Below, piece by piece: positions 1-45,074 of a stretch of DNA of 45,074 nt. The notes under the pieces were generated by a model. That model was not told the DNA's origin and did not search any database. It saw only the letters and a program-made list of their open reading frames with translations. Origin of the DNA: a phage; the NCBI GenBank assembly GCA_028473545.1, contig GCA_028473545.1_4546.1; one strand, 5' to 3'. Within the stretch, counting starts at the first letter, position 1. Every line of letters starts with the position of its first letter. A program made the translations under genes and the position numbers.

Positions 1-8
1 AAAAAAAA

Positions 9-35
9 AGCGCCGAGGCAAAATGCGACGGCGCT
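9..35 (-). terminator. Hairpin followed (on minus strand) by a T9 run; possible rho-independent terminator at window edge
   Basis: agcgccg (9-15) pairs with cggcgct (29-35), 13-nt loop; plus-strand A9 at 1-9 becomes a 3' T-tract on the minus strand. Large loop makes this weak. Confidence 0.25.
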
Positions 36-105
36 AACCAATAAGAGACAATGAGACGTGATTATTATTACACGCGTGCGCGCCCGTTTCAATATACAAA
101 AGGAG

Positions 106-165: not shown

Positions 166-495
166 ATGAATATCAAAGAAGCAATTGAAGTGTTATCTAA
201 TGCAATCCGCGGCGAAGCGGGTAAATCCTGGTATTACACAAATGCGGTGGATACTCTGTTATTTGAAGTGTCCAGATTATCGCGTGCTGAGAAGGAGCTT
301 ACCGCGAAGCTGGAATTGCTCAACGGCACGGCAGCAAGCAAGCTGCAAAAACACAATGAAGAAATGGAAGAATACAAAAAGCAGGTTATCCGTTTGCGCG
401 ACGAGGGCAAGTCCTGGGCGATGATTGCCGAGTTGACCGGAATTAATCAGAGCACCGTGCGCTCCTGGGTACGCAATAATAAAACTTCTAAGTAA
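166..495 (+). CDS. Small DNA-binding protein with C-terminal helix-turn-helix (putative early transcriptional regulator)
   Basis: 109-aa ORF with RBS caggag before the ATG; C-terminal GKSWAMIAELTGINQSTVRSWV resembles an HTH; first gene downstream of the rightward early promoter. Confidence 0.55.
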   Translation: MNIKEAIEVLSNAIRGEAGKSWYYTNAVDTLLFEVSRLSRAEKELTAKLELLNGTAASKLQKHNEEMEEYKKQVIRLRDEGKSWAMIAELTGINQSTVRSWVRNNKTSK

Positions 496-5459: not shown

Positions 5460-5695
5460 TTATCGCCATCCTGTTATTAGTGATCGGGGCTTCGTCGCTG
5501 TATAACGTATACGCGCCATCCGTCCAGGATGGCATTTGCGGACGGGTGCTCTACCTGCTTACAGCAATGACCTGTATTATTGGCCTGATGCAAACGGGGG
5601 ACGTATCGAATACAGTCTGGTCCGTGCTAATCTGGCTATTCGCATTACGCACACTGCGTAATGCTGTTTTAAATGGGGTAAAACATGCGATTTAG
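5456..5695 (+). CDS. Holin/antiholin-like membrane protein
   Basis: 79 aa, very hydrophobic; ATGA start/stop overlap with the upstream gene; precedes the endolysin. Confidence 0.5.
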   Translation: MIIAILLLVIGASSLYNVYAPSVQDGICGRVLYLLTAMTCIIGLMQTGDVSNTVWSVLIWLFALRTLRNAVLNGVKHAI

Positions 5696-6176
5696 TGACA
5701 ACGGTCTAAGATTTACGGCAGCGTGGGAGTCGTTCAGCCCAGTGCCGTATTTCGCGACTAAGAAGGAGCAGGCCCGCGGCTTGTACACCTGGGGCTACGG
5801 TCATACTGGCACTAATCCGCCACAGAGCATTACCCGCGCGGAAGCGCTGGAGCTACTCAAGCGTGATGTGGCGTATGCCGAGAACTGGGTGAACAAGTAC
5901 GCACACCCGAGCATCAATCAGGCGCAATTCGACGCGCTGGTGGATCTGGTAATCAATGCCGGTCAAGGTCCAATCGTACCGGACAACATTGCCAATGACT
6001 TCGATGACGCGGTGCGCCTGGGTGACTGGGCGAAAGTCCGAGCTACGCTGCCGCAGTTCCGCAAGCAAGGCGGGGAAGTGCTCAAGGGTCTTGTCCGTCG
6101 TGCAATCGGCAGACAGGCGCTATTCGATGGTAAGCAGTGGGACGTTGCCGAGAAAATCGGTCGTAACGCGGCATAA
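5685..6176 (+). CDS. Endolysin, T4-lysozyme-like (GH24) muramidase
   Basis: 163 aa; N-terminal E..RL..Y.D..G.WT.GYGHT pattern matches the T4/P22 lysozyme catalytic region; follows the two holin-like genes. Confidence 0.75.
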   Translation: MRFSDNGLRFTAAWESFSPVPYFATKKEQARGLYTWGYGHTGTNPPQSITRAEALELLKRDVAYAENWVNKYAHPSINQAQFDALVDLVINAGQGPIVPDNIANDFDDAVRLGDWAKVRATLPQFRKQGGEVLKGLVRRAIGRQALFDGKQWDVAEKIGRNAA

Positions 6177-41422: not shown

Positions 41423-42211
41423 TTAACGGCGGCGACGTTTACGTGGTGCTTCGTCTTCGTCGTCTTCGTCCTCATCTTCGTCATCGCGGGACTTACGACG
41501 CTTGCGAGGCTTCTCATCTTCCTCGTCTTCGTCATCGTCGTCGCGGCGCTTGGACTTCTTGGACTTGCGCGGCTTGTCATCTTCGTCATCGTCATCACGA
41601 CGTTTGGACTTCTTAGCCTTGCGCGGTGCTTCATCTTCGTCATCGTCGCCCAGGTCGTCATCGGAACAAGAAGACCCGCCGCCACCGAAGGAATCACCAT
41701 CATCACGGAAGCGAAGACCCATCAAACCGGCACCGAGTCCTTTACCGTTGGTGTTGTTCCACGCCCAAATATCCAGGGACACGTTGCAATAACAACCGGA
41801 ATAGATTTCCTGGCCTTCGATCTCGTCGCCGTCGATGGTCAGACCCTGTTCGGTCTGCTTCTCGCCCAGTGACGTTTGGATGTTAGGCTGTTTGAACGAT
41901 TTGGCGTTGATGTACAGCATGCCTTCAAACTCTTCGGTTACTTCGTCGCGCTCATCACCGTCGCGAACTGCGCATTCCTTAGAATCCTGGGCGTAGTGGC
42001 GGTCCATCCACTTATCGGCGTTCTTCTCGGATTTCAGCTTGTCGGTGAGCACTGCGCGCGCTGCCGCTTCCACTTTGTCCACCTGCGGATCTTCTTTATC
42101 AAGAAGAATCACGGCACGGTATGCCGGTTTTTGTCCATCCTGTTTAGGGGTATCACGTTCCCAAATTTTCAGGAAGCATACGCGCACGTTTTTCAGGTTG
42201 ACTTTAGCCAT
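41423..42211 (-). CDS. ssDNA-binding protein, T7 gp2.5-like, with repetitive charged C-terminal tail
   Basis: Start at MAKVNLKNVRVCF with gagga RBS; C-terminal tandem repeats DDDDED..PRK.KKSKRR ending RKRRRR; adjacent to the Cas4-like nuclease and polymerase. Confidence 0.5.
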   Translation of the reverse strand: MAKVNLKNVRVCFLKIWERDTPKQDGQKPAYRAVILLDKEDPQVDKVEAAARAVLTDKLKSEKNADKWMDRHYAQDSKECAVRDGDERDEVTEEFEGMLYINAKSFKQPNIQTSLGEKQTEQGLTIDGDEIEGQEIYSGCYCNVSLDIWAWNNTNGKGLGAGLMGLRFRDDGDSFGGGGSSCSDDDLGDDDEDEAPRKAKKSKRRDDDDEDDKPRKSKKSKRRDDDDEDEEDEKPRKRRKSRDDEDEDEDDEDEAPRKRRRR

Positions 42212-42265
42212 TTTCAAATTCCTCATTTCGCATGTATCGGGGTTATTGTTAGCCACCCCGTTCGG

Positions 42266-42300: not shown

Positions 42301-42543
42301 TCAAGCACTTTTATTAAAAAGATTTCGTGTCACGTAGTTGGTGGCGTTCTCGATCCAGCTTAACGGCGGGCGGTCGATGTGCTTCTCAACCCAGTCTACG
42401 GCAACGTCACTGTAGCCATCGTCCAGCCAGCGGGATGGATGGCGAATCATCCAGGCCACCATTAACACGCCTTGCACGCAATGCAGGATAAACCCCAGCG
42501 CGCCGAGCATAATCATCAATACGAATGCAAATACCTTATTCAT
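42301..42543 (-). CDS. Small membrane protein
   Basis: 80 aa; hydrophobic FAFVLMIMLGALGFILHCVQGVLMVAWMI. Confidence 0.4.
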   Translation of the reverse strand: MNKVFAFVLMIMLGALGFILHCVQGVLMVAWMIRHPSRWLDDGYSDVAVDWVEKHIDRPPLSWIENATNYVTRNLFNKSA

Positions 42544-43966
42544 TGCTTAAGTCCTCGTCAGTAGCTTCAGACCACGCGGGGCGCGGGTCATCGATTGGTG
42601 CCAACACCGGTTTAGCCGGTGCGCGCGTGATTTTATCACACAATTTCGCCCACACTTTCGGTTTCTCGTCCTTCAATACCTTCTCGGCATCGGTAGGACT
42701 GAGTAATGTTTCTTTGTACATTACATCGCGCTTGATCCGGGCCTTCGTGAAGATTTCAATCACTTCGCTCTCATCCGCCCACTTGCGATTACCTTCCTTA
42801 CCGGCAACCATCTTGAGGCCCAGCGATTCGCCATCACCCGCCATCACCGCCTTGAATACTGCGGACTCGATAGCCTTGATGTGCTGACGCATTGCGTCGA
42901 GGCCTTCGTATGCATTACGCAGTTCCGCCGCGCTCATAGCGCCATTGGATTCTTCCTTATAGCCGCGCTTCGCACGTCGTGCCGCTTTCCGGGCTTCGCG
43001 GGCTGTATTGCGGTCGTGGTTGGCGCATTCTTCTTCTGTCGCCACGCTCACGTCGTCCGCCAGGTCGTCGTCTGTTGCCGTTGGTGGGGTCATCGTGTCG
43101 ATGGCGGCCTTAGCGCGGGCACTACACTGATCCGCAAATCGGCACCACTGACAGGCATCGACGCTCGGTCGGAAGTCGGCGCGGGTGAGTCCCTTCTTAC
43201 CGCGGGAATACGCGTCCAGTGCGGCAATAGCACGCTTGGATGCAAACTTAGCGAATATCTCCAGCGCTTCCACTGTAATATCCCACTCCGACGCCCCGCC
43301 GCAATACGGCTGGAAGATTACCAGGCGAACGGTCGTAATGTCGTACATGGTTTGCAGCTTGCGCAGCAGGCCCAGCGCGTACAACATAAGCTGTTTGTTT
43401 TCTTTCGCCTCGACCTTATGTCGCCCGGTCTTCAGGTCGCCAACAATAAGCATGTACGTGCCGTCGGTCTTCTTCATGACCATGACCATATCGGCAGTGC
43501 CAAACGTCTTCACCCTGTTGCTGTCTATCTCGAAGCCGGGGTGCAAGATGCGGGTGAGATCGGCGCGCATTTCAAGCTGGACAAACTCCGCTACTTCAAG
43601 GAGCGGTCGCCAGTGGTCGATGTACGCGTCGCACTGTTTCACCATATCGTCGTTGACCAGTACGCCGCCTTTCGGTGCTTTCGGGTGGGCCTTTACCGGT
43701 CCCTTACCTTCGTTCTCGACGTAGCACCCTTTGTACGTCTTCGCGGATAGCTTCTTCTCACCGGCAATGATGCGGTTTAACACTACTTCAGATACGGTGT
43801 GCATACTCGTACCGTTAATCGCCGCTTGCCCGGACTCATTCGGGATACCTTTTTCGACTACCAGGGCGGCAGGACACCCCATCCATTTTTTAGATCCCGA
43901 TGGCCCAAGTAATGAGTGCTCCGTATTGCTGCCGGATTGCGTTTTGCGCTTCGGTTTAATAGCCAT
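42536..43966 (-). CDS. PD-(D/E)xK nuclease, Cas4/RecB-like (DUF2800-like) with C-terminal Cys cluster
   Basis: 476 aa; N-terminal LLGPSGSKKWMGCPAA; CQWCRFADQC cluster; paired with the gp2.5-like SSB as in many phage replication modules. Confidence 0.55.
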   Translation of the reverse strand: MAIKPKRKTQSGSNTEHSLLGPSGSKKWMGCPAALVVEKGIPNESGQAAINGTSMHTVSEVVLNRIIAGEKKLSAKTYKGCYVENEGKGPVKAHPKAPKGGVLVNDDMVKQCDAYIDHWRPLLEVAEFVQLEMRADLTRILHPGFEIDSNRVKTFGTADMVMVMKKTDGTYMLIVGDLKTGRHKVEAKENKQLMLYALGLLRKLQTMYDITTVRLVIFQPYCGGASEWDITVEALEIFAKFASKRAIAALDAYSRGKKGLTRADFRPSVDACQWCRFADQCSARAKAAIDTMTPPTATDDDLADDVSVATEEECANHDRNTAREARKAARRAKRGYKEESNGAMSAAELRNAYEGLDAMRQHIKAIESAVFKAVMAGDGESLGLKMVAGKEGNRKWADESEVIEIFTKARIKRDVMYKETLLSPTDAEKVLKDEKPKVWAKLCDKITRAPAKPVLAPIDDPRPAWSEATDEDLSNE

Positions 43967-44154
43967 TATTCCACCCTTGAAAATTGAGCAATGTAATAAT
44001 CGTGTTTAACATTGGCGCGCTTCGCGGCTTCGTTCATGGTTGATGCCAGTCCGCGGGCTTGCGTCCAGCAACAATTCCAGTTTTGATTCATAACAATTTC
44101 TGGTTGCTCGTCGCCGGTAATACGGCAGCGAAATAAAACAAAGAATATAGTCAT
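43966..44154 (-). CDS. Hypothetical small protein
   Basis: Start at MTIFFVLF; ATG shares one base with the upstream stop (TAATG). Confidence 0.3.
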   Translation of the reverse strand: MTIFFVLFRCRITGDEQPEIVMNQNWNCCWTQARGLASTMNEAAKRANVKHDYYIAQFSRVE

Positions 44155-44405
44155 TATTTTGTTTCCCAACGGTCAATTACTTTTTCCTCCGACGATACGG
44201 CAAAGCGAACATATTCCAGATTGGAGTCCGCCCAAATATAGAAGTCGGGGTTAGTAAATGTGGTGCGCTTAATTTGCGCGGGGTTATCGCGGCGTTTATC
44301 TATTACGGCAACGCGTGATTTAAAGTTGCCGGTACGTTCGAATAGCCAATAATAAGGGCGCTGGTCGCGTGAATCCACCGCCTCGATTAGCGTGAAGCGT
44401 GCCAT
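44154..44405 (-). CDS. Hypothetical protein
   Basis: 83 aa; gagga RBS; preceded on the minus strand by a hairpin and T-run (44415-44446). Confidence 0.45.
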   Translation of the reverse strand: MARFTLIEAVDSRDQRPYYWLFERTGNFKSRVAVIDKRRDNPAQIKRTTFTNPDFYIWADSNLEYVRFAVSSEEKVIDRWETK

Positions 44406-44453
44406 TGTCTCGTCCTCTAAAAATAGGCCCGCAGATTAGCGGGCCGGATAATA

Positions 44454-44972
44454 TTAATCTTCTAATTCGAAATACGTTTCTACGATTTCTTTTAAATCTT
44501 TGTGGAAGTCTTCGACGTCGTCATCTTCCAGCTTGGCGACGGATTTAATTTCGAACGCTTCCAGCAGATCATCAAATTCGTCGTTTGCGTCGTCGTCATC
44601 TCCGCCCGCAATAATAGCGGCATACTGTTTGATTTCGTCGCGCATTTCTTTAAGCGGATCGGCATCTTTCTTGCCTTTGCCTTTCGCCGGTGCTTTCTTA
44701 GATTTCGCCGGGGCTTCTTCCTCGTCCGCGTCGTCGTCTTCTTCTACGGCTTCTTTCTTAGCCTTGCCCTTTGCGGGCGCTTTTTTGGTCTTTGCCGGGG
44801 CTTCGTCTTCAGCATCGTCATCTTCGGCTACTTCTTCTTTCGCCTTGCCCTTTGCCGGGGCTTTCTTCGCTTCCTGTTTACCAACGGCAGCGCCAGCAGT
44901 TTCATAATGCTTAGCGATGGTTTCCAGTGCTACAACGCCGCGAGTGATCAGGTTTACGATTTGCTCAAACAT
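44454..44972 (-). CDS. Highly charged tandem-repeat protein (alternating K/A/P-rich basic and D/E-rich acidic blocks)
   Basis: 172 aa; three copies of APAK.KKAPAKGKAKKE followed by acidic runs; ggaga RBS; first gene downstream of the leftward early promoter. Confidence 0.55.
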   Translation of the reverse strand: MFEQIVNLITRGVVALETIAKHYETAGAAVGKQEAKKAPAKGKAKEEVAEDDDAEDEAPAKTKKAPAKGKAKKEAVEEDDDADEEEAPAKSKKAPAKGKGKKDADPLKEMRDEIKQYAAIIAGGDDDDANDEFDDLLEAFEIKSVAKLEDDDVEDFHKDLKEIVETYFELED

Positions 44973-45033
44973 GGTATATCTCCGATTGGTTAATTTTAAG
45001 TGTTCGGTGCGGTATGCCCCGTCAACGAGGTGA

Positions 45034-45063
45034 ATAATAGATTGGTTGCATGCGGGGTGTCAA
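45034..45063 (-). promoter_or_regulatory. Sigma70-like early promoter (leftward)
   Basis: Minus strand TTGACA (45063-45058), 18-nt spacer containing TGCAACCAAT, TATTAT (45039-45034); about 55 nt upstream of the ATG at 44972. Confidence 0.45.
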
Positions 45064-45074
45064 CAACTAATTTC

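Follow-up and report, generated by a model that had tools for sequence, protein, structure and literature searches.

Introduction

In phage T7, the single-stranded DNA-binding (SSB) protein gp2.5 and the gp4 helicase each have an acidic tail, and on the polymerase the two tails bind at the same basic patches; in phage lambda the gam gene precedes bet and exo. Phages T4 and T7 encode small, acidic, helical proteins, AsiA and Gp2, with RNA polymerase as their binding partner. Lys/Ala/Pro tails are carried by the histone H1 C-terminal domain, Hc1, AlgP and HupB, and HMGB1 joins a basic region to an acidic tail. In this study, we analyzed a 45,074-nucleotide stretch of phage DNA (GenBank assembly GCA_028473545.1, contig GCA_028473545.1_4546.1; hereafter the window) and one gene near its right end, at 44454..44972 on the minus strand, which encodes a 172-aa protein with internal charged repeats. 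The roles of SSB tails, with which these repeats can be compared, have been summarized elsewhere (PMC5686142, PMC13402713).

The gene is already present in databases as a hypothetical protein, an uncharacterized and apparently fixed component of a common phage DNA-metabolism cassette, and literature searches turned up no work on its function. As a sequence feature it is not of a new kind; what is unusual is a pair of variable charge-block repeats, one in this protein and the other in the SSB of the same phage. The module of DUF2800 nuclease, gp2.5-type SSB and PolA is among the commonest phage replication-recombination cassettes, and the protein probably works with the recombination and replication genes rather than as a histone. 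If it is a working part of the cassette, or a missing RecBCD inhibitor, models of replication, recombination and defence sensing in these phages miss a component; if it is a simple dispensable early protein, the finding is ordinary.

The locus resembles the T7 gp2.5 and gp4 tails in that abundant proteins of a gp2.5-type module bear a charged, disordered segment, and in that two module proteins have look-alike tails. Unlike them, the segment studied here lies inside the chain, as alternating acidic and basic blocks of variable copy number, and its protein has no oligonucleotide/oligosaccharide-binding (OB) fold; the terminal aromatic residue is absent. With lambda Gam, T7 gp5.9 and T7 Ocr the protein shares small size, helical content, acidity and abundance from an early-type promoter, and, like gam, its gene lies ahead of an exonuclease and an annealing/SSB protein. 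It differs from these three in having no homology or fold match to them, a fixed slot, a long polyampholyte linker with a basic patch, and remote relatives that are not acidic. KKAPAK-type low-complexity blocks recall H1 and the bacterial H1-like tails, and basic and acidic segments in one chain recall HMGB1, but a globular H1, HU or HMG domain is absent, the net charge is negative and the blocks are dispensable in natural alleles. The plan of the studied protein recurs in Enc34 ORF3 (PHROG 7721, Casjensviridae) and the PHROG 5053 proteins of Streptococcus prophages, the latter similar to the studied family at the profile level; all of these occupy the slot 5' of a DUF2800 nuclease and have an N-terminal helix, a K-rich disordered linker and a C-terminal helical domain; in contrast to the protein studied here, they are free of tandem acid/basic repeats, and the SSB tails of their phages are plain acidic ones.

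Conserved Ends and a Variable Linker

The window can be assigned on nucleotide identity to Dhillonvirus (HK578-like coliphages). The 1.2 kb round the gene was 98.4% identical to Escherichia phage vB_EcoS-CHD5UKE2, and this region matched 151 phage records, nearly all Dhillonvirus (HK578-like E. coli siphophages). The coding sequence (CDS; 44454..44972, minus strand) starts with ATG and specifies 172 aa plus a stop codon. The protein has 173 database homologues, and the conserved C-terminus stays in frame in every length variant among the homologues listed; on this comparison the reading frame is real. Residues 1-172 matched positions 1-178 of the PHROG 3127 profile (E = 1.2e-49), a family annotated as "unknown function", which Jersey gp49, P0104, P0133 and P0141 also match. 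Searches of the protein against NCBIfam, sequences in the PDB and known folds gave no match, and Pfam returned no family for the protein or 32 relatives. BFVD returned family members only, namely Edwardsiella phage eiAU Gp46, a protein of Salmonella phage St162 and the MB78 "13.88 kDa late protein".

Structure prediction with AlphaFold2 used a 28-sequence alignment, with a second run on a natural 115-aa short allele. Residues 1-26 (MFEQIVNLITRGVVALETIAKHYE; 44895..44972, minus strand) are a conserved amphipathic N-terminal helix, predicted at residues 2-26 with a predicted local distance difference test (pLDDT) of ~50 in two models. R11, V13, A15, E17 and A20 are invariant in one family alignment and invariant or nearly so in two others. 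At the other end, the first-pass annotation had expected a short helical terminus; instead, residues 106-172 (44457..44657, minus strand) are predicted to form a conserved acidic three-helix domain of ~65 aa, the most conserved part of the family, with helices at 106-123, 127-139 and 150-168 and pLDDT 78-87. The net charge of this head domain is -18 in 63 residues, and the isoelectric point (pI) of the whole protein is 4.5. The run on the 115-aa allele gave the same head domain, with the N-terminal helix again undocked. Nearly every family member retains a lysine-rich patch just ahead of the head, with a mean of 6.4 K/R in 25 aa.

Among 20 distinct Dhillonvirus alleles, the ratio of nonsynonymous to synonymous polymorphism (pN/pS) was 0.053 in the first 25 codons and 0.052 in the last 63, and both protein ends are under strong purifying selection. 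It is the N-terminal helix, the head-adjacent lysine patch and the head that selection keeps.

The middle of the protein is of a different kind. The open reading frame (ORF) was originally described as carrying three Lys/Ala/Pro blocks that alternate with Asp/Glu runs, and this description proved correct: KKAPAKGK occurs exactly three times, at residues 36, 63 and 92, with the Asp/Glu runs EEVAEDDDAEDE and EAVEEDDDADEEE between the blocks. Residues 27-105 (44658..44894, minus strand) are predicted to be an intrinsically disordered polyampholyte linker (pLDDT 31-40), whose 79 residues include A20, K20, E12 and D10. Its charge blockiness has z = +5.9, and none of 5000 composition-preserving shuffles reached the observed value. 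The net charge is -3 (21 K/R vs 24 D/E, by the boundaries of a comparison of 118 homologues). At the DNA level, the charge blocks are encoded by a tandem repeat with an 87-bp unit in 2.5 copies (44660-44867, minus strand; Tandem Repeats Finder, 77% matches), and this stretch is annotated as a repeat_region in phages welsh and bob.

Across the 118 homologues, linker length ranges from 30 to 94 aa, basic and acidic counts rise in step (r = 0.86), and the net charge stays at -2.2 +/- 2.8. The functional core does not lie in the repeats, of which otherwise near-identical phages have almost none to ~3.5 units; alleles of 122-124 aa in complete ~44-kb genomes (P0090, P0095) have only the lysine patch, and the acidic block is almost gone. 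Because repeat number varies in this manner, the repeats cannot carry a conserved function, and the tandem K/A/P and D/E repeats are therefore a tolerated, expandable spacer and not the active part. The natural alleles, with 0 to ~3.5 repeats, already form an experimental series from which the contribution of a charged, disordered tether could be read.

A Fixed Position Upstream of a DNA-Metabolism Module

Each of the ~155 Dhillonvirus-type records matched has the gene at this position, as do the Jersey-like relatives examined, and the gene's relatives match ~640 phage records, Jersey-like and K1G-like phages included. In 185,579 bacterial genomes the family is all but absent, so it belongs to virulent phages, namely Dhillonvirus, Guernseyvirinae (Jersey gp49, K1G-like), and phiEap-2 and relatives. 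The divergence of the conserved domains is about that of the neighboring nuclease, SSB and helicase. On these comparisons the gene behaves like a fixed module gene and not like a swappable accessory gene. A head-domain profile run against 1.84e9 representative proteins found just 41 matches, all of 90-212 aa; all of those retrieved, 32 of the 41, had the same plan, and some had a duplicated head. Metagenomic relatives P0122, P0123 and P0132 (208-212 aa) have the head domain in two tandem copies.

Downstream in the operon lies a DUF2800/PD-(D/E)XK exonuclease gene (42536..43966, minus strand), and every relative of the studied protein that was examined sits 5' of a homologue of this nuclease gene. 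By tblastn, the same orientation and order were seen in all 28 relative-bearing loci, and also in five further contigs or records; the synteny holds for members at 35-59% identity and for the most divergent family member, P0155. Where the contig continues, a DUF2815 (T7 gp2.5-type) SSB, PolA and an SNF2 helicase come after the nuclease. Upstream, where the contig reaches, a helix-turn-helix (HTH) gene and/or a primase-helicase gene is divergent from the studied gene. This constant place upstream of nuclease, SSB and PolA speaks for a part in the DNA metabolism of the phage itself no less strongly than for a host target.

The DUF2800 nuclease itself has a much wider spread, as it matches 1136 phage records whose range, from enterobacteria to streptococci, takes in Gram-positive hosts, and in several such phages a small protein of the same plan occupies the slot just 5' of it. 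Gene 0037 of Streptococcus prophage Javan494, a probable remote relative directly 5' of its DUF2800 nuclease, was found by hmmsearch with E = 6.8e-6, and hhalign over the whole C-terminal domain gave a probability of 61% (E = 8e-5). PHROG cross-hits form a chain 3127-18562-5053-408-7721. Enc34 ORF3 and an MA11 ORF are positional analogues with the plan of helix, K-rich linker and helical domain; direct homology to the Enc34 ORF3 family was not significant, as profile comparison gave a probability of 12%, on the N-terminal helix only. A wider superfamily of small proteins upstream of DUF2800 is, from these profile matches, likely but not proven. The MA11 ORF, in a Pectobacterium phage, is an unannotated one of 133 aa and of Enc34-ORF3 type (L041 ~5520-5920, plus strand; PHROG 7721, E = 6e-22), which fills an annotation gap between primase and exonuclease. 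The net charge of the head ranges from -4 to -19 across PHROG 3127 and is -2 and 0 in the Streptococcus and Pseudoalteromonas relatives; since these remote heads, from Gram-positive and from marine phages, are near-neutral, acidity would not be the ancestral property.

A Junction Motif in the Protein and in the SSB Tail

The SSB of the window is encoded at 41423-42256 on the minus strand, and its C-terminal tail (~41426..41665, approximate coordinates) contains four acid/basic repeats, ..EDEAPRKAKKSKRR / DDDDEDDKPRKSKKSKRR / ..EDEKPRKRRKSR / ..EDEAPRKRRRR. The tail thus ends in PRKRRRR and is not the usual purely acidic tail. The first-pass annotation had noted that the charge alternation of the studied protein parallels this tail, and the parallel was not only real but sharper than stated. 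Translation of the window in six frames gives 445 stop-to-stop segments, and just two of these contain the junction motif [DE]3-[AKR]-P-[ARK]-[KR], the studied protein (twice) and the SSB (four times); in phages EE09 and Jersey the motif was likewise confined to these two proteins.

Copies of the SSB repeat range from 1 (phage welsh) to 4 among Dhillonviruses, and Jersey-like phages and other relatives have 1-3 units. In seven of seven family-carrying loci whose SSB tails were examined in detail, the acid/basic tail ends in poly-Arg. In contrast, Enc34 and MA11, which are without PHROG 3127, have plain acidic SSB tails. No DNA-level homology beyond codon-sized matches was found between the SSB-tail repeats and the repeats of the studied gene, so the likeness is convergent or functional and not a recent copy. 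A shared repeat-generating process, also proposed from the first reading of the window, is still plausible, but common descent of the two repeat regions finds no backing at the DNA level.

Expression of the Gene

The suggestion that this is the promoter-proximal, first leftward gene agrees with a sigma-70-type promoter-like site, TTGACA-18 nt-TATTAT, at 45034..45063 on the minus strand, which matches 11 of 12 consensus positions and is identified at the consensus level; its -35 and -10 elements are also kept in phage EE09. A Shine-Dalgarno sequence, GGAGAT (44978..44983, minus strand), read from the sequence and the same in EE09, lies 5 nt 5' of the ATG. Directly 3' of the stop codon is an intrinsic-terminator-like element (44416..44445, minus strand) made of a hairpin at 44445..44426 with 7 G-C pairs and the stretch TATTTTT; the hairpin has a folding energy of -17.2 kcal/mol (z = -2.8) and lies 5' of the next gene (44154-44405). 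No equivalent terminator hairpin was found behind the homologues in Jersey or L004. With a promoter and its own terminator, this promoter-proximal gene forms a unit whose expression can exceed that of the genes behind it by a wide margin. Judged from the promoter type alone, its timing would be early.

In cells infected with EE09, a sister phage, proteomics detected only four phage proteins, CDS56 and CDS61 among them, and CDS56 was not in the list of lysate/virion proteins (PMC10673088). We identified EE09 CDS56 as the homologue of the studied gene, with an over-called start, and CDS61 as the SSB. In phage UDS3lw the homologue is labelled "prohead core protein"; this label was rejected, as the EE09 homologue is found in infected cells and is off the lysate/virion list, and the PHROG has no assigned function.

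Possible Functions of the Protein

Considering the observed architecture, conservation pattern, synteny, abundance and shared motif, we favor a reading in which the phage's recombination/replication module has the protein as an abundant accessory without enzymatic activity, working with the SSB; to this reading we give a probability of about 0.4. The module would comprise the DUF2800 exonuclease, the gp2.5-type SSB, PolA and the primase-helicase, with the studied protein as accessory. It lacks an OB-fold ssDNA-binding domain, as there is no Pfam match and the prediction is all-helical plus disorder. The amphipathic N-terminal helix would probably serve in self-association or docking, the disordered polyampholyte of variable length would be a tether, and the conserved acidic three-helix head, with the lysine-rich patch ahead of it, would be the part presented at its end. 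Because the protein and the SSB have the same acidic-run-(A/K)-P-(A/R)-K junction, the tether may take part in the electrostatic network of interactions to which the SSB tail belongs, at replication or recombination intermediates coated with SSB. There the protein, possibly as an oligomer, would either act on the SSB tail, by bridging or competing with it, or use the head domain to recruit or shield a partner, and in this way affect DNA metabolism.

Several points weigh against this reading. The argument from gene position is guilt by association, and anti-host genes such as lambda gam also adjoin recombination genes. Similar expansion of codon repeats, and not shared function, could have given the protein and the SSB their common motif, and the two genes show no obvious match in repeat number, with phage welsh having 1 SSB unit and a 169-aa protein. 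The N-terminal helix is not confidently placed (pLDDT ~50), so oligomerization is a guess. The protein can be called abundant only in a relative sense, because the EE09 proteomics was shallow (four phage proteins). The database name "13.88 kDa late protein" of the MB78 homologue, an unconfirmed label, sits uneasily with early expression.

A bolder form of the same idea takes the protein and the SSB tail as a matched block-polyampholyte pair, in which an oligomer of the protein would cross-link SSB-coated phage DNA, by way of complementary acidic and basic blocks, into an electrostatic condensate, a membrane-less compartment for replication or recombination in a small siphophage. This is conceivable in that both proteins are among the few detected and both have variable-number charge-block repeats with the same junction motif; we nevertheless regard it as improbable. 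If it were true, the protein would be an unrecognized conserved scaffold subunit of the widespread DUF2800/DUF2815/PolA module, and repeat number would tune the material properties of the condensate.

The main rival explanation, which we hold to be rather unlikely, is a host-directed DNA mimic, in which the acidic head, possibly in an oligomer formed through the N-terminal helix, would fill the DNA site of RecBCD in the manner of Gam or gp5.9, or that of a restriction or BREX enzyme in the manner of Ocr. The most attractive target would be RecBCD, the inhibition of which would protect linear phage DNA and recombination intermediates. An abundant product of the first gene behind a strong promoter would suit this role, as would the head charge of -18, which spans -4 to -19 across PHROG 3127, and a place in one operon with exonuclease and SSB/annealase downstream, as gam precedes bet and exo; moreover, annotations of these phages name no RecBCD inhibitor. 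P2 OLD, which fires on RecBCD inhibition by Gam or gp5.9, has been reported to defend against Dhillonvirus with the trigger unnamed (bioRxiv 10.64898/2026.07.10.737580), an indirect hint; against this, OLD is also said to respond to origin hairpins, and earlier BASEL work singled out lambda as Old-sensitive. On the restriction side, new Dhillonvirus isolates of the BASEL collection plaque on most strains they lyse despite only moderate resistance to restriction-modification (PMC11990801), which would be in line with a mimic. However, neither sequence nor fold similarity was found between the protein and Gam, Ocr, ArdA or any solved protein, the heads of remote relatives are near-neutral, and anti-defence genes are usually patchy, whereas the studied gene is fixed in its slot across several genera.

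The two remaining explanations give the protein a direct contact with DNA or RNA polymerase. As a histone-H1-like DNA-coating or nucleoid-remodelling protein, as the first-pass annotation suggested, it would bind DNA non-specifically through the Lys/Ala/Pro blocks, with the host nucleoid compacted or displaced, or phage DNA coated, as the result. The KKAPAKGKAKK blocks do resemble H1 and bacterial H1-like tails in composition, the lysine-rich patch stands before the head in almost all members, and the protein is abundant. The AT-hook core Arg-Gly-Arg-Pro is absent from the window protein; an AT-hook-like KRGRP is present only in some distant relatives (e.g., P0103-P0105), others having KRTRA there. 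The resemblance ends with composition. Pfam Linker_histone gave no hit for the protein at E <= 1 and none in 33 family members at E <= 0.01, and no HU/Hc1-type, HTH or other DNA-binding domain was found in the protein or the relatives scanned. The strongly net-positive tail of an H1-like protein is also missing, as the linker is neutral to slightly negative, with a net charge of about -2, and the pI is acidic. Moreover, K/R counts in the linker range from 5 to 23 among near-identical phages, and it is the non-basic ends that are most conserved. We consider this the least probable of the explanations. Hardly more probable is a transcription factor or RNA-polymerase-binding protein for the divergent early promoters or the early-to-late switch, iteron binding included. 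The gene adjoins the divergent promoter region, where the 15-mer GTTGACACCCCGCAT lies in both -35 elements, and proteins of the AsiA and Gp2 kind show that small acidic helical phage proteins can bind RNA polymerase. However, a regulator with an HTH or sigma region-4-like part is already encoded by the neighboring 109-aa gene, Jersey and other relatives likewise have an HTH gene, no DNA-binding domain was detected in the protein, and stoichiometric abundance is unusual for a regulator. With an HTH protein encoded next door, and with a head whose acidity is far too high for it to bind DNA sequence-specifically, a role as promoter or iteron regulator is unlikely; for the proposed iteron binding, nothing was found in support.

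Immune systems of the host have been connected with other genes of these phages. Known triggers of bacterial immune systems, or sites of escape from them, include the SSB and polymerase of Dhillonvirus (Retron-Eco8, Borvo). Candidates for a link with the studied gene were rejected: Ksap1, the Dhillonvirus trigger of KpAvs2, is another gene, of 74 aa, between methyltransferase and phosphatase; the RAZR trigger in SECphi18 is the portal protein; and in a catalogue of SECphi4/6/18 escape mutants, the genes named are those of the SSB, of the polymerase and of a 56-aa protein, and the studied gene is not among them.

Other Features of the Locus

The end of the window (..ctaatttc) and its start (aaaaaaaaagcgccg..) join without a gap in phage EE09, so the window appears to be a whole genome opened within the divergent early intergenic region. 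Opposite-strand ORFs at 44500-44993 were set aside as by-products of the repeat composition.

The 5' leader of the gene (44973-45033) is shorter than that of EE09 (L007 34830-35025), which has ~130 nt more between promoter and ribosome-binding site, and most other Dhillonvirus matches lose alignment at window position ~45007. Where the leader is longer, gene callers stretch the ORF to 207-239 aa (P0016, P0052, P0062, P0082, EE09_56). The structure of the extra EE09 leader was not unusual (z = +1.4) and it had no Rfam match; there were also no Rfam matches in the entire window.

The 15-mer GTTGACACCCCGCAT is located at 105-119 on the plus strand and at 45050-45064 on the minus strand, in the -35 regions of both divergent promoters, and is a candidate operator for the adjacent HTH protein. 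The 109-aa gene concerned (166-495, plus strand) is labelled "putative transposase" or "DNA recombination nuclease inhibitor gamma" in relatives. Because only an HTH or sigma-70 region-4-like C-terminus was seen in it (TIGR02937, E = 3e-4, below the cut-off), it is probably a small transcription regulator.

A possible small RNA gene runs across the window ends, just 5' of the promoter of the studied gene (1-92, minus strand). Its putative promoter, TTGAAA-17-AATAAT with TG (92..64), is followed by ~58 nt, and its 3' end would be a GCGCCG..CGGCGC hairpin with U9 (-16.7 kcal/mol, z = -3.9). No Rfam family above threshold matched this candidate, which overlaps a 36-aa CDS annotated in EE09 (EE09_55).

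Phages welsh (L001 3056-3169) and SECphi18 (L003 3056-3181) have an additional annotated ORF of 37-41 aa between the homologue and an 83-aa gene, labelled DUF3572 in SECphi18. This extra ORF may explain why several other matches align to the window in two pieces.

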